A DNA stretch of 61,722 nucleotides, counting the filler, from Dugesia japonica (lineage: Eukaryota), in assembly GCA_001938525.1 (NCBI GenBank). It is 5 parts of 5 records of this genome, joined end to end, with 100 filler letters (N's around TTAATTAATTAA, not from the genome) between each part and the next. Parts side by side here need not be neighbours in the genome. Positions count along the whole stretch, not along the records: positions 1 to 10,324 come from MQRL01549608.1; positions 10,425 to 25,372 come from MQRL01596441.1; positions 25,473 to 34,931 come from MQRL01400521.1; positions 35,032 to 43,823 come from MQRL01553304.1; 1 more part is not named here. One strand, written 5' to 3'. Of the stretch, positions 531-36,162 are shown in pieces. The notes under the pieces were generated by a model. That model was given only the letters and a program-made list of their open reading frames with translations, searched no databases and was not told the DNA's origin. Within the stretch, counting starts at the first letter, position 1, and each line of letters begins with the position of its first letter. The position numbers and the translations under genes are program-made.

Positions 531-711
531 AGATTATTGACGAAGACAAGGTCGAAATATTGAATTGTTATCCAATATCAATAAAAAAANNNNNNNNNNN
601 NNNNNNNNNNNNNNNNNNNNNNNNNNNNNNNNNNNNNNNAAATGAATTCTATAAAACGATCAATGGTTATGTCCAACAATTATTCTCGCAATAATTGCAA
701 TTGTAAAAAAA
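531..711 (+). mobile_element. 5'-truncated copy of hammerhead-bearing Penelope-like non-coding element (subfamily A)
   Basis: 13-bp TSD TAGATTATTGTCA at 518-530 and 712-724; degenerate core TTGACGA-A-GAC-AAG-GTC-GAAA-TA-TT-GAAT starting at 537; shared tail GATCAATGGTTATGTCCAACAATTATTCTCGCAATAATTGCAATTGTAAA; contains an N gap. Confidence 0.8.
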
Positions 712-1127
712 TAGATTATTGTCATTTATTTATTTTATTTTTGTCTGTTATGAATGTCATATATTTAAAAGAAATCAAATAAATATTTCTATAGGTCACT
801 GGAGCAATAATTACAGTAATATTCAACAAGCTTAATTATTGTTTAAATGCATATTGATTCCGCTCAGTAATTAATGCAAAATGGGTCATATGGCATGAAT
901 ACGCTTCTAACCACAATGCCATTTAGACGAGTTCATGAGTTTTGAAAAATATAAATATATTTATAACTTTTTTATTATATTATTTAATTCTTGAAAGGAA
1001 TTTGAAATAATTCATCAAACTCCAGATCCAATATTCGCAACACATAGCTAGGTTAACGGGACTAGAAATGTAAATAATTTGTACATGATTTTAAAAAAAA
1101 ATTTATGTTTATCTGAATAAAACGTAC

Positions 1128-1279
1128 TTTTACTCTACCAACTGCTTCTTGTGCTTGAATCATTCTTGTATCTTTTGATGGTCTATTATCGGAAGTAAGT
1201 TGTGTGCTTCCTAAGTAATTGGCACGAAAAAGTAGTCCTTCAATTAATGTGGTCGGGTAATCAGGATGCCGAACTTTAA
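1128..1279 (-). CDS. lin-10: X11/Mint/LIN-10 (APBA family) adaptor, exon encoding start of the PTB domain; gene continues off the left edge
   Basis: [51 protein letters not shown] matches the X11 PTB motif LIxGxxFxAxYLGSTQL...RMxQAQEAVxRxK; AG acceptor at 1281-1280, GT donor at 1127-1126. Confidence 0.93.
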
Positions 1280-1729
1280 CTATTTGCAATTTATAGAAAC
1301 AATTTAATATATTAAATTATATAATAATAATATATTAATAACTGAGTCTTTTGTAACTTGGAATTATTATATTGATAAATTTTTCATTATTAGACACAAT
1401 TAAAGAAAAATGCCCACAGCATAAATAGAAAATCAATATTAGATAGAAATTTTAATGTAAAAAGTTATCCAAACTGATTAATAAACATAATTTTGAAAAT
1501 TAAATAATGAAATTTCTTTTTAAGTCANCAGATTTATATTATACTTACCAAAGATTTACAACCTATTATAATGATTTCTTTATAATAATTTCTTTACATT
1601 AATAAAAGTTATTTAAAAAATTTATAATTTTAATTTATTTTGAAAACTGCAATTATCATTTTAATTATAAAAAATTTTATGTCATAGAAATTTTTATTAT
1701 AAATATAGAAAATATAAAATTAAATCTAC

Positions 1730-1757
1730 CTTCTTTTCCTTTTCTTTTCTTTTCACA
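1730..1757 (-). CDS. Probable micro-exon of the X11/LIN-10 gene (CEKKRKGKE)
   Basis: ttttag|...|gtag boundaries; phase 0 in and phase 1 out, compatible with the flanking exons. Confidence 0.6.
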
Positions 1758-3456
1758 CTAAAAATATTTAAAAATACGTTAAAAATAAATTAAATATAAA
1801 TATTAAATAGTTCTTTACTACTGTGTGCTTTATTCTTTTAGATTAAGTGGCACTTATTTTATTTTGGTTTCTTACTTAGCAAAAAATCGAAATTTTGTAG
1901 CACTAGCATCCTACTAAGTAATTCACGGAAGAAACAATACGAAAGATCCATTGAGATCAACTAAGCTTTATGGAATTATGTGATAATGTAAATCTACCTT
2001 TCCAAATCAATTACTATCTTCCGTGAAACCATTCCATCCACAATAATTATAAGAATAGATATGCCAAAATTAAAAAATGAAATAAAAATTTCTAACCCAC
2101 TTTTTACAAAATATTTTTTACAGATTTTTTTGTTTATCAATCGGATTTCAGCATATAAAATACTAATAAAATTTTTGGAACAAGTGAAAGTGTCCGTAAA
2201 ATACAATTATGCTATCAATCACCCGTTCAGTTTGAATATATTGAAAAAATATAGATTTATCTCGAAATGTCACAATTGGCCGACGCATGACTTGTGGCAA
2301 TTAGAATTGACTAAGCACAAAATAGGATATAAGGAACTGACTAAAAATTAAATATATCTAACAGTAATACCATCATTCAAACCACCGTCACACAAACAAA
2401 CAAATTAATAAAGAAACTGAAACTAACTCCTATTTACAAGTTAATTAGAGTAGCATTATAAGGGTCCCATTTTCATAAAATAATTATGCTAATAAATAAT
2501 AGTTATTAAGAGAATTTACAATTCAAACTTAATTCATTAAAACAAATTGATTCTTATTATATTCAAAACCTTATCTGAACTTTGCAATTTTCTATCTATT
2601 ATTAATTATTTAAACAAATTTTTAACGCCTTTAAAAATTTAAAATACTAAAATATTTTAAAATATATTTATGGAAAATTTTCAAAAAATATTCTAAATTT
2701 ATAATTAATTTTTCCAAAATATATTTACAATATTTTTTTATTAAAATATAAAACAATTAGAAAATTCTAAAGGCATTTCCTTATAATTATAAATTGGTGT
2801 TTGTTGGAAGTATATTTTTTGTTTGTTATTTGTAATATCTTATTTGTAATCTGTTACTTGTAATATATGATTTGTAATGCTATTTTATATTAATATTTAT
2901 AATATTATTTCATCTTTTAAATTCATTAAATAATCTATTTTACTATAATTACACCACCTTTTTTATTTNNNNNNNNNNNNNNNNNNNNNNNNNNNNNNNN
3001 NNNNNNNNNNNNNNNNNNNNNNNNNNNNNNNNNNNNNNNNNNNNNNNNNNNNNNNAATTGATTTATTCCAAATTGAAAGTGTTTAGTTTTTATGATAAAC
3101 TTATACCTCAACATCTTGTTACTTGAATTTTTATTTTTTAAAATTGAATTTTTAGTCCGACAATAATTTATTTTAAAATATTTTAAGTAATAATGAATTC
3201 TCTAAGATGAAAGTTATTAACTAAACTTAATCAGTATTGTTAATTGTTTTAATCTAAATATTTCAACGACTTAAAATGAATTGAAATATTCTCTTAGAAA
3301 TATTGAACTAGTTTCTCATTATTTCTTATCAACAAATAAGAATTCATATTGATATTTTTCAGAACAAACAATATGTTAATTTATCAAGAAATATACAATA
3401 TTTTACTGATGAAACAATTCAAAATATTTTTTATATACTTAACTGAAACATTTATT

Positions 3457-3477
3457 AATAACAATAATAATATTAAA

Positions 3478-3523
<46 letters not shown>
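3457..3523. repeat. (AAT)n microsatellite running into a gap
   Basis: Direct reading. Confidence 0.95.
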
Positions 3524-4234
3524 NNNNNNNNNNNNNNNNNNNNNNNNNNNNNNNNNNNNNNNNNNNNNNNNNNAATTACAGAATTAATCATTTAAATTAA
3601 TCATTATTAATAATTTAATAGGTTAAAATTAATAAATCAATATTCCAACTTATTGACTTTAAAAAATAATTTTTAAAGCGTCACCAATAGATTTATTTTA
3701 TTATCTGACATCGAGCAACAACTAAAAGAATTCGAATTACAAATTAATATTGTATAAATAAATATATTAAAGGTTCTGTCAATGGTTAAACAAATATTAT
3801 TTTCCTTTTCAAAAATTTTAGACCAAAAGAATNNNNNNNNNNNNNNNNNNNNNNNNNNNNNNNNNNNNNNNNNNNNNNNNNNNNNNNNNNNNNNNNNNNN
3901 NNNNNNNNNNNNNNNNNNNNNNNNNNNNNNNNNNNNNNNNNNNNNNNNNNNNNNNNNNNNNCCTCACACTAATATTCTTGTCAATAGCAAAAGTTCTCAA
4001 CTTTAAAAAACACGATATTCTTAAACCACGCGAAAATTTTTATATCTATATAAAACCGAAGTACGTGCAATTTCAATACCATTATGTTTACAGTTTGAAT
4101 CTATTAAAAATTGCTGCAGGTTTTCACCCTAAAAGATTCCCTAAACATAGAAGAAATACAAAATCCTGAAAGAATTGCGATTAGAACATTATTCGTACCA
4201 TTAAAAAAAATAAAATAATTAAACTATTTCATAC

Positions 4235-4335
4235 TTCAAGGTGTTTATTTTCCTTCAGTTCAGGAATTTCCATCTTTTCATTTCGTTCATACTGTTTCAT
4301 TAATAGCTTATCTGTATCTTCGTCACTTTCATATT
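4235..4335 (-). CDS. Probable upstream exon of the X11/LIN-10 gene (EYESDEDTDKLLMKQYERNEKMEIPELKENKHLE)
   Basis: Open frame bounded by ttcag| and |gtatga; higher GC than flanks; phase-compatible with neighbouring exons. Confidence 0.65.
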
Positions 4336-5293
4336 CTGAAATCCAAAAATTTAAAAATGTATTAAAAATTATAAATTATTATTACAATAAAGTACCATTT
4401 AATATATTTATGTCTTTTGATTATTTATTTTGTGCATTATTTAACCATCTTATATTTGAATATATTGAATGATACTTTACTGTAATAATTAAATTAAACT
4501 AATTGACGATATTCAATTTAGACAACAAATATAAAAATGAGATAAAATTTACATAAATTATATTAAAATAAAAAATGATTTAAAAATTTAATTAGAGGAA
4601 ACATTTTGTTTACTAACTTAAATTTAACCAATAACACAACATTTACTTATACAGCTAAAATATATTAATTTAGTAGCTTTCAGTATTAGTTTTTATAAAA
4701 TCGATATATATATATATATATATATATATGAATTTACGAGAATTTTTAGCGAAAGTATAAATTGAATAATGTAACTTATGTTAAAAGAAAATTATAAATT
4801 TATATTTTTAACTCTTATTTGTTGCAATTAAAGATTAGTTAATTTTTAACCTTTAAACTTTAAATGAAGCTTTCTTTAAGTGTTCACTATTTAGAGAAAG
4901 TATACACAAATTCATATGTACAATTTCACTGATTAAATTAGTGAATGTATACATCATCTGAATGAACACTATTTATAACATAAATTACTATTTTGTTAAA
5001 TTTCATTATTTTAAAATAATTTTTAATTCTTCCTTGTCCTTAAAATATTGTTAGAAATCAACACCAGTAATTTTCAGATAAACTTGTAATAGTTAAAAAT
5101 GTACACATTAAAAAATATTTAAAGTCAATGAATTCCTGAAAATTTAGAAAGTTTTGAAAATTACTAATTAAAATCTGTGCTTCATTTCTAATACAACTTA
5201 ATAAAATTTGATAAGATACTTAAGTCATAAATTGATGAAATTTTTAAGTAAAATTGATTTTTCTAAAGATTCGATTTAAAAATTGATTGCTTG

Positions 5294-9148: not shown

Positions 9149-9255
9149 TCATTAAAATAAGATAAAACTTCGATCGAAGCTTTATCTTATTTTAATGAAA
9201 TCTCAAATGCGATCAATGGTTAAGTCCAACAATTATTCTCACAATAATTGTAATT
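9149..9255 (+). mobile_element. Minimal fold-back copy of the Penelope-like non-coding element (subfamily B)
   Basis: 14-bp TSD ATAAATGAACTCTT at 9135-9148 and 9256-9269; near-perfect palindrome TTTCATTAAAATAAGATAAAACTTCGA|TCGAAGCTTTATCTTATTTTAATGAAA followed by the shared tail. Confidence 0.85.
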
Positions 9256-10324: not shown

Positions 10325-10424
10325 NNNNNNNNNNNNNNNNNNNNNNNNNNNNNNNNNNNNNNNNNNNNTTAATTAATTAANNNNNNNNNNNNNNNNNNNN
10401 NNNNNNNNNNNNNNNNNNNNNNNN
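10325..10424. other. Artificial scaffold-concatenation linker
   Basis: N44-TTAATTAATTAA-N44 (stops in all six frames), identical at four positions. Confidence 0.97.
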
Positions 10425-10517
10425 TTTCATCAATAAACTAATAACTCACGCAATTGCTGATTTGCTTTGGCAACAATCCCCAAAGCATCTCAACACTTCT
10501 ATTAACACTTGGTTTTC

Positions 10518-11444
10518 TTAATTTATCATTGGTTTAAAATTATAGATGGCTCCGATGAGTTCGGCTGTTTTGGTTGAAATTAATTGCTTATTTTCACTTA
10601 TCACTTTGATGATCTCCTGGATTTTATTTACCCAATATATTTCTGCTTCCACTTTTTTGGTTATCACCCCGGTTTTTATATCCATAATTTCTTTAGTTAA
10701 GCAATTTTGGCCTTGATCATCCAGAATGTTACGGTCTTTTTCCGGATTTGTATTAACGTGATTCACTTCTTCCATTTTCTGGCTTAATTGCAACATGCTT
10801 ATTGTTTCTAGTCTTGGTTTTTCTATTTCAATTTGAAATGTATTAAAATCCAATTTTGTCCTAATTAACAGTTTTGGCATTAAGTCGGTCCCTAGTCCTG
10901 CATCCACATTAGTTTTCATTACAAGGAATTGGTGCTTTATTATTTTTCCTTGGAGTTGTGCATTGCATTCTAATGTTCCAATGATCTGCACGGTTTCCCC
11001 GTTAATCCCTGTTGCTCTGGTTGTATAAAATATTTTTTCTTTCCTCTTGTTTTGGGATATATTTTTTATATTCAACACTGATCGCGATGCTCCTGTATCC
11101 AACAGTGTTTTCATTGTTCGGTTGTTAATTCGTATTATTAGTGACAGGCTAAATCCGCCATTCTGTGTTTCTATTACTGCTATATGCTCATTCTGTTCCT
11201 CTTCATTAGGTTCCGTATTTATTTTCTCTTCCGGAGTTATTTTATCCTCATTTTGTATGATGGCTTCTGGTGCGTTTTCTCCCGCATTGAGTTTCAGTTT
11301 AGCTAGGGCTTCTCTTAGTCGAGTGATTTTTTGTTGATTATTTTTCATTTGTTTACGTAACTGGTAGTTTTCTTCGGATAGTGTTCTTGTTACCTCTTTA
11401 TTCCTTGTATTATCATCATCTTTATCTCGTCTTATTTGGTACAA
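10518..11444 (-). CDS. Retropepsin (aspartic protease) ORF of a Ty3/gypsy-like element
   Basis: IRINNRTMKTLLDTGASRSVL ... TGINGETVQIIG ... DAGLGTDLM: DTG active site, flap and G-x-D motifs. Confidence 0.88.
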   Translation of the reverse strand: MYQIRRDKDDDNTRNKEVTRTLSEENYQLRKQMKNNQQKITRLREALAKLKLNAGENAPEAIIQNEDKITPEEKINTEPNEEEQNEHIAVIETQNGGFSLSLIIRINNRTMKTLLDTGASRSVLNIKNISQNKRKEKIFYTTRATGINGETVQIIGTLECNAQLQGKIIKHQFLVMKTNVDAGLGTDLMPKLLIRTKLDFNTFQIEIEKPRLETISMLQLSQKMEEVNHVNTNPEKDRNILDDQGQNCLTKEIMDIKTGVITKKVEAEIYWVNKIQEIIKVISENKQLISTKTAELIGAIYNFKPMIN

Positions 11445-11498
11445 TTTTTTATATTTAACTGGAAAACAATTTTCCTCGTAATTACGACTTCTTTCGAC

Positions 11499-12313
11499 TT
11501 AAGTTACATTCCTTGGTCTTAAAATGTCTATTCTCTGTTGATATAATCTTGCAATATAACCCTGCTTTCCACAGACATAACATACCCTATTTTTTGTTTG
11601 ACAATCTTTAGCTTGGTGTCCTCGTTTGTTGCAATTGTAACACTTTTGTACTCGTTGGGCCTTNNNNNNNNNNNNNNNNNNNNNNNNNNNNNNNNNNNNN
11701 NNNNNNNNNNNNNNNNNNNNNNNNNNNNNNNNNNNGCTTTGGTTTATAATTTGTTGGTTATGAGTTTCGTTAACTTCGTTATCGTCTCTTGAACTTTGAT
11801 CCTCTTCTGCTTTGATTCTTTTAAGTTGGCATCTCTCTTCTGGGTGCCCCTTGTTTCCGCATTTGCTACAATATCTTTGCCAGCATTTATCTATGGTGTG
11901 ATTTTGCCGACCGCGAATGCTGCAAAATAAATAGATGATTGTACACTGCTTGGTATTGTGGTGAGTTCTTCGACAATTCTGGCATTTATTTTGTTTGTAT
12001 ATTGTTCCTTGACCAACGGTTTCCTTTCCGATAATTAGTCTTTGTTCTGCCAATACTTCACTCATTGCTTCTGCTTCTAATATAGAGGTTTACTTGAAAC
12101 CACGTAACCTTTTATTAATGGGTCTCGTAAACCCAATCCAAAATATTCTATTATTCTTTGCTCATCTGTTATATTTGCAACTTTTGCCCACTCCTTTATT
12201 GTGGCCGCGAATTCTTGATAAGTTTCGTTCTTTTTTTGTTTCCTTTTCCTAATTTGTTGAAATGCACCCCACCAACATGCGTACTCTCTACCCTTTGCTT
12301 CTGTCTCCTCCAA
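11499..12313 (-). pseudogene. Gag module 2: capsid C-terminal-like segment plus about five CCHC zinc knuckles (frameshifted)
   Basis: RKQKKNETYQEFAATIKEWA...IIEYFGLGLRD; CSKCGNKGHPEERC, CYNCNKRGHQAKDC, CYVCGKQGYIARL and two degenerate knuckles. Confidence 0.85.
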
Positions 12314-12529
12314 TTTCTTCCTGATTTATGATGATCCCGTTAGTTTTGCAAGATGATTGATTATTTCCTCCTACTGTAACAAAAATTGTTGGTTCAATAA
12401 CCCCTTTCGGCGGTTCTTCAGAATTTATGCTCAACATGTACAATCTTTTCTCTCACCTATCCGTGGTTTCTTTTGTACATATTTTTAGCTTTCTGTTTAC
12501 CCAACGCACTTCTTCTCCTTCTTTCATGT

Positions 12530-13265
12530 TATTTCTACTGTTACGACATCCTTTTTTAGGACAGTTTAGTACTTGATGGCCAGTTTTTCGGCAGTAATAA
12601 TATTGTAACGTTGGGTTCTTACATTCTTCCTTTAGATGTCCCTTTCTTCCATTTTTTCCCCATTTTTTCTTTATCTAACGACAGTCATTTTCTTGATGTC
12701 CTTTTTGCCGACATTTATTACATTGTCTTGGTAGTACAACTAGTTGTCGCGTTGCTGGTTCATATTCTCGATGCATTTTGATGGCTTCTTCTAAAGTTTA
12801 GGGTTTTTATTCTTTATGAATGGTTGTATTTGTTTATCCCAAATCCCTTTATATAGGGATTGATACATGCACTATCTTTTTCGGGAGACCAATGTTCCGT
12901 CGGAAGGAGTTGTCTAAACCTGATGGCATAAAGGGTCGAGTTTTCTCCTGCTTGTTGTTTACAGTATAATATTTCTTTCAATGCTTCTTGGAATTCTTTT
13001 GGAATTTTGAAATTTTTCCTTAGTAATTGTTCTATCTCATTCCATGATTTGAACGATTCTCCTGTAGCCCGAATGTGCTGTCTATATAGCATCTTTGCGA
13101 TTCCTTCTAGATGAAGTGGTATCATAAGAGTCTTATCTTCCTCTTCCCATTTGAATGCTTTTGATAGCTTAAAAGGAATTCGTTTATTTCCTCCGAATTT
13201 CCTCTGAATGCCTCGCCGTGATAGCGCTTTACTGGTTTTCTTCTTATATAATGTTCGTTGTTCAT
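12530..13265 (-). pseudogene. Gag module 1: retrotransposon capsid plus three CCHC knuckles (stops and frameshifts)
   Basis: IPLHLEGIAKMLY...SWNEIEQLLRKNF...CKQQAGENSTLYAIRF; CNKCRQKGHQENDC, (x)GRKGHLKEEC, YYCRKTGHQVLNC. Confidence 0.82.
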
Positions 13266-15249
13266 AATTGTTTTCTAAGTTACAAATGATTATAAACTAA
13301 TTACTTGGATAATGCTAAGAATGCTACAACGATTTCCGACTGGATTGTGCTTGCTCCATTGAAGACTTTGAATCTAAACACATTTTAATTTACCCACACT
13401 GCCCAATTTGATTTTACCCTTAGTGTTTATTTTATACCCCCTTATCGTAAGGTCTAGCTAAAAGCTTATATTTTTAATGGTACTTGTTGAAATCACGTCT
13501 GCTTACTCTCCATCTCCGGTTTGTTTTAAATTCGACGTCCTCGTCGAACTCTTTATTAGTTAACTCGGATAGGGCTGTTCATTATCACAGTACTCCTAGG
13601 TTACGTGTATTTCCTATTGGCATCTCCCACTAAAAGGTAAATTCTAATTATTTGTTAATATAACCAGTTTCCCTTATTGCTTGAGTTAACATTTTAGCGT
13701 TTTATTCGCTTATTTTTTTTTGTCCAACCCCAGACTTCCAATTATTTCAGTCATTATCTTTTTGACATCGTTAACATATTTATTTAATAGTTGAGTCATA
13801 GTCCCATTATGTAATTACTATATCATGGTCGTGTTAAATTAAAATTCCTCTAGATAAAATCCAATAAATAACTGAGTCTTGATTGTTTTCCATTAAAATC
13901 TCTTTATTAATTACCATCGTATTTCACCAGGGCCCTCCTTTTAATATTTAAGTCATAATTTGATTAAAATCCATTTCTTTAGAATCGGTTTATTATTTAA
14001 AGTTAATCCTCCTTACTATCATACTCATCAAAGTTCTTTTAATAACTATTTCAATTCTAGCAAACTTCCGAATTTATCTAAAGTGGATTACTATTTACAC
14101 TGTAATCATAAATTAATCATGTTAATGGCTATAATCATGTAAAATCTTTTCAAGGTTTGGGTTATCATCATCTTTGTTTCATCTATCGATCTTATTTTAA
14201 TCATATTTTCCCTAATAACCATTATAATTTATTTAATCGTAATCACTTATGTAAAATCTGTTTAATATTCGTTTTCACATTACATCCAGTTAAAGTATCG
14301 TAATTAACAAAATCCGTCAATATCTAAATCAACATTCAATTCACTATTATATCTTTCTCGCCAAAGTCTCTTTAATCATAATTATGCTCCCTTAAATTGT
14401 GTTGTCTTGTCTGTTCATTTCAACTAGGTTTCTTTTTAATCTTCCTTTATTTTTCATTTTAATTTCCTTAATTAAGTCTTCCTTTATTCTTTCTTTTAAT
14501 TTCCTTAATTAAGTCTTCCTCTATTTCGAAATTACCTATGAAAAATCCTTTTAAACATTTGTATCATAATTTTAGTATGTCATGNNNNNNNNNNNNNNNN
14601 NNNNNNNNNNNNNNNNNNNNNNNNNNNNNNNNNNCTTCCTCTATTTCGAAATTACCTATGAAAAATCCTTTTAAACATTTGTATCATAATTTTAGTATGT
14701 CATGAGTTGTGATCATTATATATATACCTAATCTTTTAATAACAAGGATGCACCAATGAACCATTTCTTTCGAAATCTTTACTAATTTGGCTTTTGCCCT
14801 GCTCTACCGTAAGCGCAATTTAGATAGTTATTACCTTTATGACGTAGTCAATATACCAGCAGTCTCAATCGGGACGGGTCGACGTTTCTTGATCAGATCT
14901 CGACCTATCTGTCCGGCACGTGATTTGTTCAGTGGACGTTCAGATTATCTTTGCAGATCATGAGTAGTCGAGCTACCTGATGTTTCATACAGGTGATCAT
15001 CCATTCCCTGTCGCTCCCTCTTTTTTGTAAGAATCATAAATACTTGGTTGGCTCTTTGTTGCGGACAACAAAGCTGATCGTAACTTTGAAGTCTGGTTGA
15101 TCAGACCAATTTCACAACCTCCAATTCAATATGTATGATTACTGGGATCCCTTATCGCAGAAGGACTTATTACGCTACCAGTGTTCAACATAATAGAGTA
15201 CCCTTTCTAAGTGCAGGCAAACTTTTTATCGTGGCATGCCTAACTGCTC

Positions 15250-15561
15250 TTCCATATTCAGTTTACTTTTTTGATTACACGTGAAGTACCCAGAATAAAT
15301 ATTTCCTTTGATTGTTAACTGTATCACCTTTGTTTAAACATTATTACAAATCAAATTTCTTAATTTTCATAATCTCTTACTAAACTACTTACTTTCTTAG
15401 TCTCCTAATTCTATTTCTTAACTTCTTGCCAGGCTGCTAACAATTTTAAAAGTGGGAGTACCCATTTTGCTGTAATTACATTACATTTAATGGGTGTAAC
15501 GCCACATACATTGGAGAGACTTCCCGTCATCTCTGCACCAGAGTTCAAGAGCATTGTCGAA
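15250..15561 (-). pseudogene. Second, highly degenerate retropepsin-like fragment
   Basis: TMLLNSGAEMT (cf. LLDSGA) ... NVITA ... IFILGT; frames disrupted. Confidence 0.4.
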
Positions 15562-22730: not shown

Positions 22731-25073
22731 CACCCATACCTCGCTATACGGGCGCTCTTTATACGGCATTTCGCTATAACGGCCCTCTTAAATTAAGGTA
22801 CGTTTTCGATTTACGTCCTAAAATCTTTCGCTATAATGGCAAAAAAAACTTTTTTTCGATGTCGATATATCTACATGTTGCCAATCTTGCGCAAGCACAA
22901 TCTCGATGCACACTCTTTTTTATTTCCTCTTGTTTACGAGCGTTATTCAGTGTGTGCTCATAAAGCGGCTGCTTTAAACTTGTCTGTGAGTGTTTTATGT
23001 ACATATTTATTACTGATTGTTACACATTAACACATTTTTGGTACGTAAGTACATATGTTTGTATGTACAGATTAAAAATTTTTAAAATGTATTTTTTTAT
23101 TAAACTTATTTTATAATTTCATTATTTTTTAAATAAAATGCCACCGAAACGATTATCGACTTCAGAGACTGATAAAAAGAGATGTCGAAAATCAGTCACG
23201 CTAGGAACTAAACTAGAAGTATTACGTCGTATAGAAGCTGGAGAGAAAATTATAGAAATTTGCAAGACAATGGGACTTGCGAAATCTACCATTCAAACTA
23301 TTCGTGATAAAAAAAGAAGACAGTAAAACATATGTGCAATCTGCTGCACCTTTAAATGTCTCGAGATTAACACGCCAAAGAAACTGGATTATGGAAAAAA
23401 TGGAAAAACTATTGATTATATGGATTGAGGACAATAACAAACGGAGAATGCCAATGAGTCATATGACTATCCAGCATTAAGTATTTTCGAAAATTTGAAG
23501 AATGGAGATACCGATGAATCTGCTGAAGATGTCATATTCCAAGCAAGCCGAGGATGGCTTGAAAAATTGAAAAATAGAATATTTTGCATAATTTGAAAAT
23601 GAAAGGTGAAGAAGCTAGCGCCGATGAGGCCGCATCTAAGGAATATCCAAACATTTTAAAGGGACTTATTGAAATAGGTGGTTATAAACCTGAACAAGTG
23701 TTTAATTTAGAAAAACAGGGCTTTATTGGAAGCGAATGCCTGATCGCAGGTACATTTCAAAAACCGAAAAATCTGCCCCTGGTTATAAAGAACGATTAAC
23801 TTTGATACTTGGTGCAAATGCGGCGGGTGATTTTACGCTTAAACCACTTTTAATATATTTGTCCAAAAATACAAGGCCTCTTAAAGGACTAAATAAAAAT
23901 CAATTACCCGTCATATGGAGATCCAACAAGAAAGCTTGGATGACTAAAGCTACTTTTGAGGATTGGTTCAAAAATCACTTTTGTACAGAAGTGAAAAAAT
24001 ATTTGCGAGACAATAACTTAGGCAACAAGGTTTTGCTAATTTTGAATAATGCACCAGGGCATCCTACTAATTTATCCAAACTATCTGAAGATGTCATGAT
24101 TAAGTACCTTCCGAAAAATACATCAGCTCTAATTTAACCAATGGATCAGGGTGTATATTACCTATTAAGGCATATTACCTACGCCGAACTTTCCGACAAC
24201 TTATAAGGGAAATCGATGATAAATCTTCAATTAAAACATTTTGAAAAAACTATAACATCAAAGATGCTGTTGACAGCATCAGTGAATCATGGAAGGAATT
24301 AAAATTAACAACAATGGACCATGTTTGGAAAGAAATATGGCCAGAATGCGTAAAATGTACTGATGCAGATGTTAATTTCCTTCCTGAAATTAAGCAAAAC
24401 ATTTTGAATCTAGCACATGATCTCGGCTTTGAAGGTTTGAACGAACGTGATGTGCTTGATTTACTTGAAGCTGATAGGGAACCCTTTTCATATGAGGAAC
24501 TCATTCAGTTGCAAGCAGAACCGACATTTGACAAAGAGACAGAGCTACTTGTATCCAAACAGCTAACATCAAAAAATTTGTCAAAAGCTTTTTACTATTT
24601 CAAACAAGGAATAAACATCCTCCTTGAAAACGATCCTGACGTCGAATGTAGCGTTAAAGTTTCTAGAGGAATTAAATCAGCCGTTAGCTGTTATAAATCA
24701 CTGAAGAAATAAGAAGGCAAGTCAAACAACGTTGGACAATTTTTTTAAGTCAGTCCCATCCTTACCAGCGAAGAATGATGACGACAGTGATCTACAGGTT
24801 ACTATTTCTTCATCGTCTTCAGATTAAAGCCATTTAAAAAAGAATTATGTCTATTATTATTTTATGTACAAATGTATGTACTAGTTATCTATGTATTTTT
24901 GATTTAAATGAAATAAAAAGATAAAATGCATTTTGAATGATAAACCATGTTACATATTTAACAAATTTGGAACCGATCCCATCGAATTTGTGTAAATTTG
25001 TATTAGAATAATTGATTCCTTATACGGTTTTTGGTCGTGGAACGTATCTAGGCCGTAAAGCGAGGTATGGGTG
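22731..25073 (+). mobile_element. Full-length pogo/Tigger DNA transposon
   Basis: 21-bp TIRs CACCCATACCTCGCTATACGG / CCGTAAAGCGAGGTATGGGTG (1 mismatch), TA TSD on both sides. Confidence 0.95.
23138..24827 (+). pseudogene. Tigger/CENP-B-like transposase, frameshifted
   Basis: [23 protein letters not shown]; FQASRGW; KERLTLILGANAAGDFTLKPLLIY; WRSNKKAWMT; LILNNAPGHP (catalytic D replaced by N); LI*PMDQG; several stops and frameshifts. Confidence 0.93.
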
Positions 25074-25372: not shown

Positions 25373-25472
25373 NNNNNNNNNNNNNNNNNNNNNNNNNNNN
25401 NNNNNNNNNNNNNNNNTTAATTAATTAANNNNNNNNNNNNNNNNNNNNNNNNNNNNNNNNNNNNNNNNNNNN
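25373..25472. other. Artificial scaffold-concatenation linker
   Basis: N44-TTAATTAATTAA-N44. Confidence 0.97.
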
Positions 25473-25832
25473 GTTGTATTCAGAATGCGGTTCGATCAAG
25501 CTATTTTGATTGAAATTTTTCTTTTGAATACACATTTATTTCAAAGCATGAGCAATTGAGTCTTTGAAGAACGGGAAGCTCAAGCAATAAGCCAGGATAA
25601 CTTATCCTTCGATTTTATCCTTGAAGATGACGAAAGGGCCTTGTATTGAATAAATATTTTAATATATTTCTTTTTATTTTATTGATAATTTTTTTAATAA
25701 TGATTTAATATATAATAATATTCGCAATAGACTAAATAATTTGTCTCAAAAATTTTAAATTAAGTTTCAGGCGCGAAATAAATTATTTTAATTATTAAAG
25801 TAATTTTTAAAAAATGTGGTTTTAGAATTCAG

Positions 25833-28800
25833 ATTCAAAATTAATCCAACGTAGTCCTTCAAAAAGAAGTGCAAGTAGTGAAGGTCGAAAATCAGTATCA
25901 AATTCGTTTTCAATAAACGAATCTCATAATCAGTTATCACCACATTATATTAGGAGTGGAATAGGATCGGTGCCATCACAATTAAACATTCATCCATGGT
26001 CTGATGATACTAATCATAATACATCTCTAAATCATACCGCTGCTGCCTGGGTGACATATGCTCAGCAACAAGCTGCTGCTGCTGCTTATATGGATCCACA
26101 AGTAATATTAATTTTTAGAATTTTCTTTGGCTTGTAAATTATTAATTTTTGCTATTTTGTAAAACTTTAGNNNNNNNNNNNNNNNNNNNNNNNNNNTTAA
26201 ACATATTTTTAGTTAAAATTTGATGTCTGTTGATTTTATAATGTTTTATATTAATGAAATTTGAGAATATGTAAAGCAAATATCTAATTTCTTTAATTTA
26301 AATTTCTTTAGTCCCTATAAAATGTCGTCAGTTTAATTCAGGAAAGGTTTGCTGGTTGTAATAGCTGTAAATTTTACAAGTGAAATATTTTTATATTTTA
26401 TTGGCTGGTTTCAGTTTGTGTCTCTATAGAGTCCAAAATTTTCCAATTTCTTGTGCTTGTTTTCAACGGAGTGCAATTTTTATCGGAATTACTTATATCT
26501 CTGTGAGAAAAGCAAAAATCGTAGATTTGGATTGTTCTAAATATGCTAAAAAATATTGATAAGTTGTGTGCTGAATTTATAGGCAGATTTTAGGAAATAT
26601 GAAAGTATTTTCTCAGTTATTATATGTTATTAGATAATAGTTATTAGACTGTTATCAAAGTGAGCTAATTGATTTGAAGCCTGATATGAACTTGAAAAGA
26701 GCATATGGTAACTTTCTACAAAAAATTATGTATCTTAGGAAGATGACGTCACTTTTTGGCAGTAAATATTGCTTCAAAGTAGATAGCGAATTCAGCGCAT
26801 AGAAGAACATCCCGCATTCAGTTTCGTATTGCCACCACATCAGTCAAAGTTGACATTAATAAATTGTACCAAAATACAAAATACCAAATTTCGTATTAAT
26901 TAAAGTAAATGGTGTTTAATTACCTTTTTGATAACTAGTGCATTGTACTTCATAACTCAATACGCTAGTTATCAATAGATTATAATCTTTACATGTTTTT
27001 ACGGTAACTGGTACCAGTAGTTGTTCCAATGCTCGAATGAGCCCTATCAATGGAAAATATTGCATACCCCTGTTTTAATTGCTTTCGATTCTCTTGTTCA
27101 TTATGTTAATTATGTATTTTCCTTGATTGTCGTTCATTGTATTTGAGGTATGATGTTCTTATATTCTATATTAGTTGCTAGGTTTCTGTTTTGACTGATA
27201 ATTGCTTATTACCATGGATTTCTTTTCTTAATCATGTACTGGTATGTCTGATCCATTTAATCTGATTTCTACTTAATTTTCTCTGGTTAAATTCCAATTC
27301 CACAATTTTTATTTAAAATATTTACTTAGTGGCCATAAATTTTGCTTTTATATCTTAATTGAAATATCTTTTATTTAGAATTCATTAAAAATAAAAGCTT
27401 CGATCAAAAAATTTTATATTGTTTTTTTGAGATTGATTCGATATTTCGACTAATGTCTTCGTCAGGAATTGACTTTTCCTGAGTCAATTCCTGACGAAGA
27501 CATAAGTCGAAATATCGAATCAATCTCAAAAAAACAATAAAAAAATTTTTTGATCGAAGCTTTTATTTTAAATGAATTCTAAAAAATGATCAATGGTTAC
27601 GTCCAACAATTATTCTCGCAATAATTGCAATTGTAAAATCTTTTATTTGATATAGAATTATTCCTCGCATAATGTTTATTATGTTATTTAGTTTCCATTA
27701 TATTTTATGTTTACATTTATTGAAATAAATAATAACTTCAATTCGTGAGTTTATTATTAAATAATTAAAGATAACAATATATGATTATAGTGTATTCCGT
27801 ATACTTAAAAATTGTACTCGTTTGAAATGGTAACAGTCCTTATTAATTAACTTGAGTATAAGTAAAAATATCTAAAATTTTGACAAACATGGGCATTAGT
27901 AATTTATTTAGTAAATAACAATTAAATAATTGAATGTCACAAATAATTAGGAAATATGTAAATACATACGAACGTGTCGACACATACAGCAGAGAAAAAC
28001 CACTTGCGATATTTTGATAGAAAGGAATAGAAGAAAGTCTTGAGATGAAACTTGGATTACTTTAGGATTACATTTTGGTAATCCTAAGCGTGAAAGATCG
28101 TGGGTTGATCCAAATTATTCGACAAATTCAATCGCAAAACGCTAATTTTCATGGGGAAAAGTGCTATTGTGTTGGTAGTGGGATCAAAAATGTATTTTGT
28201 ACTAGGACCTACTGAAACCATTAGAAACAGTTACTGATAATCGTTATGAATATCAAATAATGAAATTAAATCATAAACAATTAAATCCTCGCAGCAAAAT
28301 GACCAGAATAGGCTACCAAGCATGGAACAGTGATATTGCTGCACGATAACTTCCGGGCTCATATTGCAAAACCTGTCAAAGGCAAGTGGAAAGAGCTGAA
28401 ATAGGAAGTCGTACCATACCCCATCTACTCAGAAGACATTGGTCCGTCGCATGTTCACTTGTTCCAGTCGATGGCACACGGTCTATTGGAGCAGAGCTTC
28501 ACGAATGATGAAGATTTCAAAAAACGGGTAGATAATTGAAATGCTTCGAAACAAGATCAATTCTTCCATGATAGAATGCATAAATTATCCAAAATTTTGG
28601 GAAATGTTTGAAATTATATGTAAGAAAAATTNAACTTGACTTTTTTCCTTGTCATTGATTTTTTAAATCGTAAAAATCGGTAGTCATACTGTACATCTAA
28701 TAAATAAAGAATAAGATAATGATGAAATATAATCATCTCTGGATGCAGTGGCGTAGCTACAGGGAAGCAATGCTTTCGGGCCCCCGGCTTTAAGGAGCCC

Positions 28801-31148
28801 ATTTAAAAATTTATTTATTTATTTATGAAAAAATCATATATTTAATTAGCTTTTTTTGTTTAATAAATAATAATTAATAATAAATACCGTTTCTAAATAT
28901 TAAAATATCAAATACATTTATTTATTTTAAATTAAATTATAACTACAAAATGATATTATTAAATTATCATACACGTAACTTCATCTATTGGTTTCTGAAT
29001 AAATAAAAAAAATGTTAGTTTGTATTTACTAATGGGCGTAAAAAATCTAGTTACGCCAGTGGCTGGATTATTAAAATATAATTGCTAATCAAATTCTGCT
29101 ATATCAATTAAAACTTTCTTAATTTGAGTTGAATAATTTATTACTTAGTTTGGTTTCTTTGATGGAATATTGAATAGATTATTTTACTTCCATCTATTTG
29201 TTATTTTGTGTACATTTAGTTGTGTTAATCGATGTTTTGTACTTTATGGCTACACATTTATATGATTTTATTATCTGTATATTTTATTGATAGTGATTTT
29301 GCTTTCCAACATATTTAAAGTTCTCAAATTTCACTTTCTTTTAAACGCATTTCTTAATTCTTATTATGGATGTCTATAAATTTAATGGTAAGTACTAGAC
29401 TATTTTACAACCAACAAAATTGTATAGAAATTCACACAAATTTCTGGGGTTTTCATATTACTGTTTAAATACCTAATTCTTCAGAAATTCTTGTAATTAC
29501 ATCATACAAGCATCCATTATTTTAGTGGAAAGTATGATTGATTTATTTTTTCGATTTTTATTTTCTTTGTATTTTTAAATACTTTCACTCTTGTATGTTT
29601 AAAATGTAATATTTTTTATTCTTTTTACGTAATTTTATAATTTACATTTGAAATGTTTGCTGTGGAAATTTATCGTGACTAAATCGTAGAACCTTCTTAA
29701 ATTTAATTCTACTTTTAAAAATTTTTTTATATTGTTCTATATTGGATATATTTTTGTTAGTCATCATAGTTATAAAGTTTTCTTACGGTGGCAATGTATC
29801 AAAACATTTTTAAAGAAATTATTTTTGTTCATCAAGTAAAGAGTAAATTGATAATAATAAATACGATAATTGTGAATAATTTTCTCAGCATTACAATTTT
29901 AAATTCAATTTAATTAATTACTAATTATGAATTAAAATTTATCTAATCATTTAGATGAAAGCCTATTACAATTTGGCTTTGTCGCAGTCTATGTTGAATA
30001 ATCCATATTGTGGGTCTTATGGAAATCCTGCTGCCAATTCAGAAAATTTTTATTCTTCTCTTCATTCTCAGTATTTGAATAATTCAAAAGAATCAAGTGA
30101 AAAAATAAATATATCAAACGGTGGTGTTAGAAATCACAATGATCCCATGGGAACTTTCATGGAAGCTGCCCAAATGTCATCCTGGGAACATTTTTATTCT
30201 GCTGCAGCTATGGCCGGCTATCATAATTCATCACAGGGTGCAATGGATGAATATGCTGGTAAATAATTTAGTAGTATGTTTTAAATATTAATTTTAAAAA
30301 ATTATTTTCACAAATTTCCTTAAAACAATTTACCCTGAGTCATCCAGCTTTTTCTCTACAAATTATTTAAATTCACTATAAACTTTGTCTATCCTACAAC
30401 TAATTATGCTTAAGCTTGTAAAGAAACAAAAATCTTTAATAGTCAAAATTTAATGATAGTTGATGGTAAATCATGTTTTGGCTTATTTGACGACAAGGCC
30501 TTATTTTCAGAGAAACATGGTTATAAATTTAAAATTTCCAAATAATTTAAGTTATGCGTAATAAATACTCACATTTATTATAGTTCTGAAATAAGACTTG
30601 CAAGAACATTCATAATAAATGTACACTATAAAATAATGTTATAGTTATAACATTATTTCAGAACAACATATTTTGAAAAGATCAAAAGCGCTTTTTGAAG
30701 CAAAAATTAATATAGAACCGAGCTTATTTAACATGGTTTTTATTTTCGATAAATAACTTTGTTCTTTTTGAATTTGTTGATTTACTTGACGTATATCGAA
30801 ACATTTTTCTAATTACATTCTTAATGTTCAAACTTTGATGATACTATTTTAAAGGTCGAGCTGGAAATATGTTACAAGCTCATCATATGCTTGCGAATGG
30901 ATATCCTGGTTCAATGCTTGGAAGGGACCATTTTTCTATAGAAAATAATAAACCACCACTAGCACATCAGAATCAGTCTGGATCAACATCCCCAATTAAA
31001 TTAACTGCAGCTAGTTCAACTCCAGTGTCATCTTCACAGGCGGCGTATTCTCATGTTCAAATGCCTTATAGTCACTTCAGTGGTACAACTGTTGGTAATT
31101 TAGTTAATTTATGGAAATAATATTTTAACTACTTTAGGTTTTTTCTAA
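25833..31148 (+). CDS. 3' part of an unidentified gene with S/A/Q/Y/H-rich low-complexity C-terminus (transcription-factor-like); exons 25833-26101, 29955-30258, 30855-31094, 31138-31148
   Basis: Four phase-compatible AG/GT-bounded exons give ...AAAWVTYAQQQAAAAAYMDPQ|MKAYYNLAL...MDEYAG|RAGNMLQAH...YSHFSGTTVG|FF*; 5' end lost at the scaffold edge. Confidence 0.75.
27377..27637 (+). mobile_element. Fold-back Penelope-like non-coding element (subfamily A) with a hammerhead in each arm
   Basis: ~100-bp inverted arms (27374-27474 / 27482-27583) plus ~55-bp tail; 11-bp TSD ATCTTTTATTT at 27366-27376 and 27638-27648. Confidence 0.9.
27487..27520 (+). ncRNA. Minimal type I hammerhead ribozyme motif
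   Basis: AUUC-CUGACGA-A-GAC-AUAA-GUC-GAAA-UA-UC-GAAU: stem I AUUC/GAAU, stem II GAC/GUC, palindromic AUAU stem III, AUC cleavage triplet; mirrored on the minus strand at ~27436-27469. Confidence 0.78.
27940..28620 (+). pseudogene. Mos1-like mariner transposase relic
   Basis: LLKPLETVTDNRY...HIAKPVK...EVVPYPIYSEDIGPSHVHLFQSMAHGL...FFHDRMHKL. Confidence 0.85.
28746..29061. mobile_element. hAT-type MITE
   Basis: TIR CAGTGGCGTAGCTA / TAGTTACGCCAGTG; degenerate 8-bp TSD TCTGGATG / GCTGGATT. Confidence 0.75.
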
Positions 31149-31476
31149 TAATCTCAATGTGATGAAACTCGACAAAGCATAACACTTTTCCTTTATTAAA
31201 TGATCTCGTTTTGTACATAATTGTATAGCTTGATATTGATTTAATAACATGTATTATTTTAACTGCAAATTATCAGAATGTCATTGTTTTCCCATGATAC
31301 AGTGTTAAATTCGTATATGGAATTTTCAATGTATTTAAAAATTTCTAGTCATCAAAAATTGAAATTTTATTAAAATTTGTATTTTGATTTTTATTATACA
31401 TTATTAAATACAAAATAAATTCAATTATAATTTGTAATGAGGCATTCAAATCACTTAAAATATTATTATTTATAAA

Positions 31477-32201: not shown

Positions 32202-32949
32202 AATTAACGAGGCAATCTTTAATCTAAACTTTGCAGCTAAACAATAATTCAAATATATTTTCTTATAATTTGCTATAAACAAATTTACTTTAAATGAACA
32301 AAACATAAAAATTTGCTTTTATTGAAAGTAAAAATTTCAATAAAATTCATTTTTAAGATCCAACTTTACTTTTAAACTTAATATGAAAAATGTTGGTTTC
32401 AAAAAAAATCTTAATTTTTATAATAAATGATTTATTCTCTTATCGAATAAATTAACTTGTTTCTTAAATAAAAATTAATGCAAATTCTATTTATTAAAAA
32501 CATGATATCATGGACGCACGTTCTCTCCATCTCGATTGCAATCTTTGTGATTTTGTCCTGCAGTTGCGAGTCCATTTGATTAGCGCTGCTAGTTGACCTT
32601 TTGTGATATCGCTAAAATTCTTCATATCTTGCGGTGTATACCCATTAAGTAACGTTTATTGGTATAATTAAACGATAATCAATGTTGCAAGAATTAATGA
32701 CGAACAAATTTTGAACTCCATAAATTGTGAACGACCATTATTCGATAGCTAATTTGTTAACTATACCTATTAGTACGAAAATAATAGTGATTGAATAGTA
32801 ATGCAATGATGATTTCAATACGATTTGAGAATGTTTGAGAAAATCAAATTAAAATCGACTAAATATGCATGCGCTCACATACATGAACAAAACTTTTATA
32901 TTGTTATTTAATTATTGTTATTTAATTAATTGTAAACTAATATTAGAAA

Positions 32950-33792
32950 ATCTCAATTAATCATGAACGAATATTAAGAATTTTGACATATATTCTGAAT
33001 AAGTACGGTTTTCGAAGTTATTCAGCAATTAAGAAGCCATATTTGAAATTGCATCAACATTTCAGAAGACTTTCCTGGGCCATGACTTACAGTTGTTAGG
33101 ATGCAGATAAATGGGGTGATGTTGTATTCAGCGACGAGTGTATCTTTCAGTCATTCGTCATCAAGTAAATTATTGATTCGAAGAAACACATTGTAAAAAT
33201 ACAATACTACCTTTATCCAAGCAGTTATGCGACATACATGTATGGGGCTGCTTCAACAGTAAAGGAGTTGGATTTCTGAAAAGAATCAATGGAAATATGA
33301 ATGCTGAGAAATATCAAAAAGAGATACTTCATGATATAGACATAGTTGGTAAATTTTTAGTCTTTCCAAAAGCAGCATTCGTTTTTCAACATGATTTGGC
33401 TCCATCACATATCGCCAAAAGTTCATAAGCATTCCTAAAAAATAAAAATATTGATGTCTTATCCTGGCCAGGTAATTCTCCTGACCTGAATCCTATTGAA
33501 AATATCTGAGGTATCTTTAAACGGAAAGTAAGACCAATGATATACAATTCTGCTGAAGAATTATGGAATGAGATCCAAAGTGACTGGTAAAAACTTTCTA
33601 GTAATCTATCCAGGAAAATTATATTCTCGATGTCAAAAAGATTAGAATTGGTCAAAAAATCAAAAGCACATCCTATTAAATATTAAGACTATCATGTATT
33701 TATTTATTTATTAAATTTCCAGGCTGAAAAAATTCATTCCAATTAAAATTTGTATTTGTTATAGGGGGTGAACAGACTTTTTACGAGTACTG
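32950..33792 (+). mobile_element. Tc1 (DD34E) transposon relic, 3' half
   Basis: FSDEC...NMNAEKYQKEIL...FQHDLAPSH...WPGNSPDLNPIENI with 34 residues between D and E; right end ...GAGTACTG followed by TA. Confidence 0.88.
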
Positions 33793-33899
33793 TATAAACA
33801 TTTTATACGACTGGATAAACTCAATTAATATTTGAGAACAGAATCTTTTATGGAAATGAGTTTTGAAATTAATTATCCAATGAGTACTTTAAACTCATC

Positions 33900-34790
33900 T
33901 TACATGGTGGCAGCGGTTAACACCGATGCAATCACAGATAGATTGTTGATAAAAATATTTTTCAGAAGCGATTATCTAAGGAAGTTTATTAAATATATTT
34001 GAAATATATTTCGGGGCGAAGAACATAGTAATTAAGAAAGATCAGGAGCGTTTAATAACATTTGTGGCTGATGAAGATTTAATGGAAGCATTTGTAAAAA
34101 TATTGAAGAAAGCTGACGGATATCGGAGAGTTTGCGATTAGCTTTAAAGGGCAATAGAAAGGCAATAAAACATTTTGCAACTATTGGGGTGGTGGTGAAT
34201 ACTTTGTGGTGTTCTTCAAAAAAGTGGAAGATTTGGTCTATAAAATTTTAGCAAATGGAGAGCTGACGAAAGATAAACTCTTATCAAAAATGCTAATAAT
34301 TTGTGTAGATATTAAAAATGCATAAGAAGAAATAATCATGCAGAAATGGGAGAAAGTAGAAGATATTAAAGAAACACTGTCATTAATTAAAAAATTAGAA
34401 AGAAAAGAACCTAAAGACGCAGTCAAGAGTTATGCAGGTGTAGCACATGGAGAACGTACGAGAGAGAAGAGACAAAATATTGAGAGAGTTACGAAAAGAA
34501 CAGTGTTAGACATGCCAGAGTTATGGGCACACAAAACGAGAGTGTTTAAAAAATCACAAGTGGAATGTTAAACTTGCAACAAGAAAAGGCAAAAAGTGAA
34601 GTAGAAATTTCGCCGACAAGAAGCCACCAAAATGTTTTGGGTGTGGTAAGATTGGTAATATCAGAAGGATGTGTACAGAAATTGTATGCGGTAGATGTAA
34701 ATGACCAAGTCACAAAGCAGAAGAATGTCATTTGAAACTTAATAAATTAAGATTAGAATAAAGAAGATACAATTTTAAAAGCAGGCAACA
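33900..34790 (+). mobile_element. Gypsy-like LTR element relic: LTR end, PBS and decayed gag with CCHC knuckles
   Basis: ...TTACA followed by TGGTGGCAGCGG (tRNA primer-binding-site-like) at 33905; CFGCGKIGNIRRMC and CGRCK*PSHKAEEC. Confidence 0.72.
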
Positions 34791-34931
34791 AACGAAAGAT
34801 TAAGTCAGACCTAACAAATCCATGCTTTCTCTCTTTTATTCGTTTTCGTCATCATTGCTTTTGTTGGGGTTTAACTTAGGTGGGCTGATTTTTTAAGATT
34901 AGGTCTAGGGCCTTAAAAAAACCCGTGAGTA

Positions 34932-35031
34932 NNNNNNNNNNNNNNNNNNNNNNNNNNNNNNNNNNNNNNNNNNNNTTAATTAATTAANNNNNNNNNNNNN
35001 NNNNNNNNNNNNNNNNNNNNNNNNNNNNNNN
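34932..35031. other. Artificial scaffold-concatenation linker
   Basis: N44-TTAATTAATTAA-N44. Confidence 0.97.
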
Positions 35032-35302
35032 AATTTTTAATAATTTTTAATGAAAATCCAAGATTTATTTTTTCAACAAATCTTTTATATCTAATTATGA
35101 TTTCATGGTTTTTTAAATAATTTAACACGCCATTTAATTAAAAAAATTTTTGACACAACAAGTTTCGACAGTGTATATCTCTGTCATCTTCAGGCAAACT
35201 GTTTAAAACGACGAATAGAGTATATATACTTAAGTTCCGAATTATGTAATCAATTATGCAATAGTCTCAATTGATTACATAATGTGGAACTTAAGTATAT
35301 AT

Positions 35303-36162
35303 TTCATTAAAATAAGATAAAGCTTCGATCATAACAAAATTTATTTGTAAAAAAGTTCAAATTTTCGACAATAGNNNNNNNNNNNNNNNNNNNNNNNNNN
35401 NNNNNNNNNNNNNNNNNNNNNNNNNNNNNNNNNNNNNNNNNNATTCTTTAAATTTTATCAAAATTTTATTGGTTTATTTTTTTTAAATTTAATAATTTTT
35501 ATTTTTAAATCAACTCAAAAAATTTTCAAAAAACTTTTTTTGATTAATACAGAGAAGTCTTTTAGATATTATTGATATATTATACTTAGAATTTTTTAAT
35601 TTTAATTTTTTTGTAATTATTTTTGAAAATTTTTAATTTTTTAAAATGTTTTTTTAATTTTTAATTTTGTTTTGTGTTTTTTATACATATAATTTATGTT
35701 ATAAATATTATTTTTTAGAAAAATTTCTTTATTAAAATTCATTCAAAAATGAACTAATTTTACACAATATTATAAAATTAATTTTTTTCTGAACTAAAAG
35801 TTTTTAAAATTTCTTTAAAATTAGTATTAGGATAACTAATTAATATATTAATCAAAAAAATTTTTTTGAAAATTTTTTGAGTTGATTTAAAAATNNNNNN
35901 NNNNNNNNNNNNNNNNNNNNNNNNNNNNNNNNNNNNNNNNNNNNNNNNNNNNNNNNNNNNNNNNNNNNNNNNNNNNNNNNNNNNNNNNNNNNNNNNNNNN
36001 NAAGAAGCCAACATGTTCCTGAAGAAGACTATTGTCGAAAATTTGAACTTTTTTACGAATAAATTTTGTTTTGATTGAAGCTTTATCTTATTTCAATGAA
36101 ATCTCAAATGCGATCAATGGTTAATTCCAACAATTATTCTCACAATAATTGTAATTATAAAA
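35303..36162 (+). mobile_element. Long fold-back copy of the Penelope-like element (subfamily B) nested in the second family
   Basis: 12-bp TSD TTAAGTATATAT at 35291-35302 and 36163-36174; inverted arms 35303-35374 / 36029-36100 and 35501-35549 / 35846-35894; shared tail. Confidence 0.88.
36015..36048 (+). ncRNA. Minimal type I hammerhead ribozyme motif (variant)
   Basis: GUUC-CUGAAGA-A-GAC-UAUU-GUC-GAAA-AU-UU-GAAC: stem I GUUC/GAAC and palindromic AAUU, both covarying with the 27487 copy. Confidence 0.72.

Follow-up and report, generated by a model that had tools for sequence, protein, structure and literature searches.

The window analysed here is a stretch of 61,722 nucleotides (spacer letters included) from Dugesia japonica (assembly GCA_001938525.1). 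It is AT-rich eukaryotic DNA (about 25% GC) from five scaffolds, with N-spacers at 10325, 25373, 34932 and 43824, and it holds four short insertions, here called A to D, spread over three of the five scaffolds, together with part of a fifth copy (E), as an earlier note on this DNA had described apart from small points. The insertions are real copies from a very abundant repeat family; each of the four is bounded by its own target-site duplication (TSD) and ends in the same 3′ tail, and hammerhead ribozyme motifs, complete or degenerate, were located in C, D and E (Table 1).

The tail pattern of the family was matched at exactly four places in the window (658, 9211, 27588 and 36112, with at most 3 mismatches) as against none in 100 shuffles, which bears out the proposal that the four copies have one 3′ end in common. 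Between these copies, the terminal 66 nt agreed at 56-65 of 66 positions and split into two subfamilies, A with C (63/66) and B with D (65/66), the agreement across subfamilies being 56-57/66. The duplications were exact in every copy, with 13, 14, 11 and 12 bp for A, B, C and D, respectively, so that the 11-14 bp proposed earlier held; at each length, 1,500 placements chosen at random gave a match of at least 11 bp in TSD geometry in 0-0.2% of cases. No open reading frame (ORF) was found in or beside any copy, again in agreement with the earlier note.

An inverted arm was present in B, C and D and was lacking in A, which contains a 50-N gap, closes its tail with a run of 7 A and duplicates the target bases 519-527 in its opening 9 nt. 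The fold-back of B pivots on a palindrome of the element itself (about 9169-9178), and the arms of C showed 4 differences in about 100 nt. The arms of D, about 245 and 315 bp long, flank a 305-bp spacer of 11% GC, whose palindromy was not above chance (126 of 300 shuffles matched its score). Thus, of the three hairpins claimed before, all are indeed fold-backs, but D is not one hairpin, its arms being held apart by the spacer. All four inverted or tail-less arms (in B, C, D and E) end at the equivalents of 27575-27584 and thus fall 54-63 nt short of the tail end; overlaps of 2-3 nt between arm end and TSD occur in B, C and D as well, a weak observation in AT-rich DNA. AT-rich sequence is common to D and E on the upstream side of the hammerhead (score 58; none of 300 shuffles reached it).

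Table 1. Positions of the insertions and associated features in the window
Feature	Position	Strand	Remarks
Copy A, TSD (13 bp)	518-530 / 712-724		Left and right; exact match
Copy A, direct copy only	531-711	+	5′-truncated inside hammerhead core
Copy B, fold-back	9149-9255	+	Without hammerhead; tail at right; TSD 9135-9148/9256-9269
GIY-YIG endonuclease fragment	15450-15560	+	Decayed, frameshifted; Pfam E 0.043; 164-N gap follows
Copy C (27377-27637), inverted arm	27377-27474	-	Without tail; hammerhead core 27444-27465 (-)
Copy C, direct arm and tail	27482-27637	+	TSD 27366-27376/27638-27648
Copy C, minimal type I hammerhead	27487-27520	+	Predicted cut after 27516
ATG-started 22-codon frame to 3′ end	27572-27637	+	Open in A, B and D; stop in C; putative coding role
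Second family, left part	35074-35302	-	Core 35163-35193 (-); centre palindrome 35222-35302; outer extension of about 40 nt
Copy D (35303-36162), TSD (12 bp)	35291-35302 / 36163-36174		Exact match
Copy D, inverted arm	35303-35549	-	Without tail; 68-N gap over core
Copy D, central spacer	35550-35845		About 11% GC; non-palindromic; longest stop-free frame 43 codons
Copy D, direct arm and tail	35846-36162	+	107-N gap; complete hammerhead 36015-36048
Second family, right arm	36163-36278	+	Core 36203-36229 (+); weakened stems
Copy E, tail-less arm	43604-43823	-	Degenerate hammerhead 43665-43698; scaffold end cuts copy

The region of the 22-codon frame spans the 54-63-nt tail that is missing from the inverted arms, and it holds a stem-loop of 8-9 bp; we regard the frame as a hint only. 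The tail variants G27618A, C27628T and G27633A preserve short overlapping palindromes (a series of G-C, G-U and A-U) between 27618 and 27633, a hint that RNA structure may be under selection there.

The hammerhead motif was located about 120 nt upstream of the family 3′ end. A strict minimal-hammerhead descriptor gave four hits in 1-43823 and none in each of 200 shuffles. Three of the hits, 27491(+), 27444(-) and 36019(+), fall in the tail-bearing family and one, 35163(-), in a second family described below. In copy C the motif consists of a 4-bp stem I, CUGACGA, one extra base, a 3-bp stem II and GAAA-UA-UC, and in copy D it reads CUGAAGA ... GAAA-AU-UU; the three family hammerheads have in common a 4-bp stem I, CUGANGA, an extra A, a 3-bp stem II closed by G-C, and GAAA-NN-UH, and their helix III is a palindrome of four bases (AUAU in C, AAUU in D). 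An intact or degenerate core had been claimed for every copy except B. This stands for C and D, which are complete, and for E, which is degenerate, but A is not degenerate: it is cut off inside the core. Over four sequences (the right arm of C, the left arm of C, D and E), 35 of 36 cells were paired (20 of 500 shuffles scored as high), with changes on both sides in one stem I pair (AU/GC) and in the helix III dinucleotide (UA/AU). As the two arms of C are non-independent and only three arms effectively count, this apparent covariation is suggestive only.

An Rfam scan of the window returned nothing at gathering level (best, RAGATH-1-hammerhead at 508-583, E 3). The loose pattern CUGANGA...GAAA had 16 matches where 1.75 were expected, six of them in the two hammerhead families; the remaining 10 did not pass the stem test and were rejected as hammerheads. 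When folded as single strands, monomers did not reach the hammerhead shape, and the z-scores were without significance, two stretches at about -1.8 excepted. With a palindromic helix III of 2 nt, cleavage is predicted to be weak and confined to dimers. In PMC4209133, metazoan PLE (Penelope-like element) minimal hammerheads likewise cleaved weakly and only as dimers. The whole copy C transcript folds into one long hairpin of -142.6 kcal/mol; because the arms of a fold-back transcript would pair together and block the hammerhead fold, most stubs are likely inert as ribozymes.

Copy D was found nested inside a second, sequence-unrelated head-to-head element (35074-35302 plus 36163-36278), the hammerheads of which have a longer stem II and GAAA-CUUG-UU; the earlier note had not listed this element. 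This element has a possible 9-bp TSD (35065-35073/36279-36287), which is weak and of low complexity; such a match has a chance of about 1% for random 9-mers, and a higher one here. Since the same architecture occurs in an unrelated sequence, it would be a general product of PLE machinery. A profile search of the window detected no further copies of either hammerhead family at E < 0.5.

In order to assess the family beyond the window, four of 24 listed sequencing runs were aligned at 80% likeness to 27476-27790, that is, to the right arm of copy C and its flank only. The two DNA runs were X2 and X5. X1 or X2 is possibly the source of the window itself, and neither counts as independent of it; X5 belongs to a separate study. 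In X2, 25,830 of 10.0 million contigs aligned, and in X5, 27,720 of 10.2 million. Summed depth climbed from 2,287 (27476-86) through 93,482 (27498-508) to 4.05 million (27608-18) and was at most 70 beyond 27652; the sole unique-flank contig listed has a depth of 7.8. Contigs departing at 27637-27639 into mutually unlike flanks (agreement 0.45-0.46) numbered 1,016 in X2 (131+496+389) and 936 in X5 (510+426). These counts are a firmer floor for the copy number, although alleles may count twice, than a rough estimate of about 17,000 copies, which was obtained from the depth through division by 7.8 and, to allow for word overlap, by 31, summed depth itself being no copy number. With some 1,000 unrelated flanks in each run, the family is large, as the word abundant in the earlier note had implied, and it is 5′-truncated; one sharp 3′ end with progressive 5′ truncation is the signature of target-primed reverse transcription.

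The same contigs also revealed joins in other copies. One X2 contig aligned to 27584 departs there, as inverted arms do. Head-to-tail joins among those listed were 27638>27562, 27638>27557, 27639>27540 and 27624>27482, of which only the last spans the hammerhead; it was seen in one X2 contig, with 33 letters between, a depth of 35.9 and a unit of about 175 nt. Four opposite-strand joins were among those listed, and such joins occurred in both DNA runs.

The RNA runs X22 and X21 contained 2,209 aligning records of 13.6 million and 64 of 10.5 million, respectively. Of the aligned RNA records, 94-95% continue into unlike sequence and both orientations are present, which fits family reads being mostly passengers in host transcripts. 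No supported go-back joint was among those listed in X21 and X22, libraries that are poorly suited to circular RNA. Copy C itself appears to lie in a host gene, between probable exons at 25826-26137 and 29955-30266. Three low-complexity exon-like frames in 25826-31120 (+) resemble the tail of a transcription factor (atlas lead trachealess, score 0.88); a search with one exon-like frame of this gene retrieved no homologue.

Taken together, these insertions are probably 5′-truncated 3′ ends (pseudo-long-terminal-repeat, pLTR, plus tail) of an endonuclease-bearing Penelope-like retrotransposon. TSD, fixed 3′ end, 5′ truncation, tail-less inverted arm and minimal type I hammerhead fit the PLE machinery, and the PLE-type reading of the earlier note, either as a ribozyme family or as truncated PLE copies, is thus supported by the anatomy. 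Four structural features of endonuclease-bearing PLEs were found: a fixed 3′ end with 5′ truncation and TSD, inverted copies (B, C and D, and the opposite-strand joins) and partial tandems (the head-to-tail joins), a one-sided tail that is missing from 4 of 4 arms, and the hammerhead. The family works like a PLE insertion unit, and it is a candidate for membership in the strict sense, which calls for a single ORF with telomerase-like RT and GIY-YIG endonuclease linked to the terminal repeat. Since the hammerhead is retained in full, together with what lies upstream, the template was not cut at that ribozyme.

We propose the following course of insertion. The RT/GIY-YIG (reverse transcriptase/endonuclease) protein would nick AT-rich DNA on both strands, 11-14 bp apart, as the biochemistry in PMC11167929 suggests, and reverse transcription would start inside the RNA at either of two sites bracketing the tail. 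The first nick would prime at the tail end and yield the direct arm; the second would most likely prime at the upstream site of the same source RNA and yield the inverted arm (twin priming), and a palindrome or microhomology would be where the two short cDNAs become linked head to head. As an alternative, the first cDNA may have been copied by snap-back, from which the same outcome is expected. At the palindrome of B, for instance, two same-sense cDNAs may anneal or a single cDNA may fold back. Loop II is 4 nt long in either arm of C, a variant absent from 96% of the family depth, in which there is one base fewer at 27503; the two arms hence share one source. The 305-bp spacer of D suits two unequal cDNAs somewhat better than snap-back, and arm divergence versus TSD identity in the three copies does not separate the two routes.

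Several observations weigh against a truncated PLE. Scans for a parent with the tail and hammerhead patterns gave no match in metagenome and viral contigs, in collections unlikely to include this animal, and a profile of the tail peptide had as its sole hit an unrelated repeat protein that scored through 11 summed stretches. Upstream of the hammerhead, D and E are about 10% GC with no coding trace up to about 570 nt, and the tail of 54-63 nt exceeds the published 30-40 nt. The 22-codon frame is weakened by the 21.5% of random 66-mers that are stop-free, and its variants were synonymous in only 2 of 14 among those listed. In addition, no pile-up of read starts or ends was observed in X21 and X22, of which X22 was oligo-dT selected and would miss cut or circular RNA.

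A less likely source of the copies is a master element that is neither coding nor autonomous, a derivative of PLEs akin to a SINE (short interspersed nuclear element) or a retrozyme, which would retain only pLTR, hammerhead and tail and use RT and GIY-YIG in trans; the insertion mechanism would be identical to that of a truncated PLE. The AT-rich non-coding DNA common to D and E, the mostly amino-acid-changing variants of the tail frame, the very high abundance and the 175-nt head-to-tail unit would all suit it, as would the RNA loose ends past the tail, which among the rows listed had no common continuation except for 6 X21 reads (agreement 0.74). Such derivatives are described in PMC8557442 and bioRxiv 10.64898/2026.07.22.740005. 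However, the five copies have no fixed 5′ end, which would be expected of a short unit-length element; PLE terminal regions can be long and capture host DNA (PMC3846280), and truncated PLEs were taken to account for most of the minimal hammerheads that stand alone in animal genomes (PMC4209133). Besides, a coding continuation may lie among 611 loose-end rows beyond those listed.

The remaining explanations are far less probable. Three of the copies being hairpins, the arms could be terminal inverted repeats of a DNA-level fold-back element or miniature inverted-repeat transposable element, moved by a transposase with the hammerhead as a passenger, and TSDs of 9-11 bp are known in Mutator and foldback elements. 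This is nevertheless very improbable, because the TSD length varies between 11 and 14 bp, A is single-armed and yet has a TSD, the tail is on the right end only and depth drops steadily 5′-ward from one sharp end, so that neither the pair of equivalent, fixed ends nor the uniform TSD length of such elements is seen. We give equally little credence to a SINE mobilised by an ordinary LINE (long interspersed nuclear element) with L1-type twin-priming inversions, which variable TSDs, 5′ truncation and the A-rich 3′ end might otherwise recommend: L1-type inversions flip upstream sequence and do not duplicate the 3′ region, whereas the inverted arm here duplicates the 3′ region and always ends at one boundary. 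Beyond 4-7 A there is also no poly(A) or simple-repeat tail, and the hammerhead is of PLE type. That inverted chimeras arose as an artefact of assembly or amplification is scarcely credible; the assembly is fragmented and there are N gaps within A and D, but the arms of C differ at 4 positions in about 100 nt, the TSDs match exactly and each of two independent DNA runs has opposite-strand joins.

A stronger proposal would be a non-coding, SINE-like Penelope parasite on the order of ten thousand copies, in which selection acting on the master copies keeps a dimer-only hammerhead, as the compensatory changes in helices I and III would suggest, and the fold-backs record twin priming from two fixed internal sites. 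We hold this proposal doubtful; if it were true, the way in which PLE inverted repeats form could be settled from the thousands of junctions that a single genome offers. If no coding parent exists, we would be dealing with non-autonomous PLEs that are dispersed and as abundant as SINEs.

With respect to a possible parent, the window also contains the decayed GIY-YIG fragment at 15450-15560, which matches nine proteins at 71-88% identity, three of them with an RT domain on record; the two of these three that were scanned have RVT_1 and a weak C-terminal GIY-YIG. A profile search detected no DNA in common between this fragment and the hammerhead family. By these matches, PLE-type elements exist in this genome, but the fragment is not tied to the hammerhead family. 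Other mobile elements lie elsewhere in the window. Decayed pieces of an LTR retrotransposon (gag PF03732, a CCHC zinc knuckle and an aspartyl protease) occupy 10518-13296 (-), and a DDE_1 transposase remnant (PF03184, E 5e-27), which we take to be pogo/Tigger-like, lies at 23706-24712 (+). Broken frames at 32947-33492 resemble, by eye, a Tc1/mariner transposase. A 25-bp satellite (43928-59623, about 620 copies, with an orientation switch near 45435) makes up most of the last scaffold, which also carries repeated open frames with gaps at 60084-60819 (-), presumably similar to capsid-like genes of Polinton-type elements; the one frame scanned had no Pfam match.

The inverted-copy-plus-tail pattern and the minimal hammerheads are described hallmarks of PLEs, so the value of the present family is as material. 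In PMC8557442, the origin of PLE inverted repeats and tails is still called undefined. With two sharp end points and, as a minimum, a thousand or so copies that are short and bounded by TSDs, the family is one in which counting could separate twin priming from snap-back. Double-stranded RNA might also arise from hairpin copies in host transcripts. With regard to the earlier suggestion that the family is undescribed, no description of it, or of twin priming in PLEs, was found in the open literature, repeat libraries and subscription papers lying outside this search.

The architecture, an inverted copy with a one-sided tail and minimal hammerheads, is already in print (PMC3846280, PMC8557442 and PMC4209133). 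The Penelope copies of PMC3846280 have an inverted pLTR, a one-sided tail of 31 bp, TSDs of 8-10 bp and palindromes at inverted junctions, with pLTR and tail spanning 22 codons, and self-priming is proposed for them; the same scheme is drawn for PLEs generally in PMC8557442, and for PMC8969392 an inverted pLTR or a short 3′ extension is a routine feature of curation. Like Pen2a and Pen3a of Adineta vaga (PMC3846280), the present copies combine a head-to-head inverted, 5′-truncated copy with a one-sided tail, a TSD and a junction palindrome, and the putative 22-codon frame of their tail region would be comparable to the roughly 22 codons (tail plus pLTR) of Pen2a. Unlike in those elements, there is no ORF between the arms, the tail measures 54-63 rather than 30-40 nt, the TSDs 11-14 rather than 8-10 bp, and the family has at least about a thousand copies.

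Animal non-LTR retrozymes (PMC7229834; bioRxiv 10.64898/2026.07.22.740005) resemble the family in being non-coding and of low GC, with a type I hammerhead, long TSDs and a proposed PLE origin. In contrast, they are head-to-tail tandem units, each with a hammerhead, and give circular RNAs, while the five copies of the window lie scattered, either head-to-head or single, and are 5′-truncated; none of them has tandem units, and because the copies are not tandem, the family is not a retrozyme as defined in those papers. With the metazoan PLE minimal hammerheads of PMC4209133 the family shares the 4-bp helix I, an extra base between 9 and 10.1, the G10.1-C11.1 pair and the palindromic 15.2-16.2. 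In that paper, hammerhead pairs of Schistosoma mansoni on opposite strands, 100-700 bp apart, were read as truncated PLEs; helix II is 3 bp here versus 7-8 bp in Schistosoma, and our motif is a prediction from sequence.

PMC11167929 reports that the Poseidon protein nicks and extends both strands in vitro, mainly on uncut RNA, with two internal start sites in the RNA, one on either side of the tail. For the Poseidon element of Anolis carolinensis (PAc) the ORF is known and activity has been measured, unlike for the present family, to which none is linked. As in PAc, however, the copies retain an uncut ribozyme, with no reads starting at the cut site, and two discrete 3′ boundaries lie downstream of the hammerhead, near a stem-loop.

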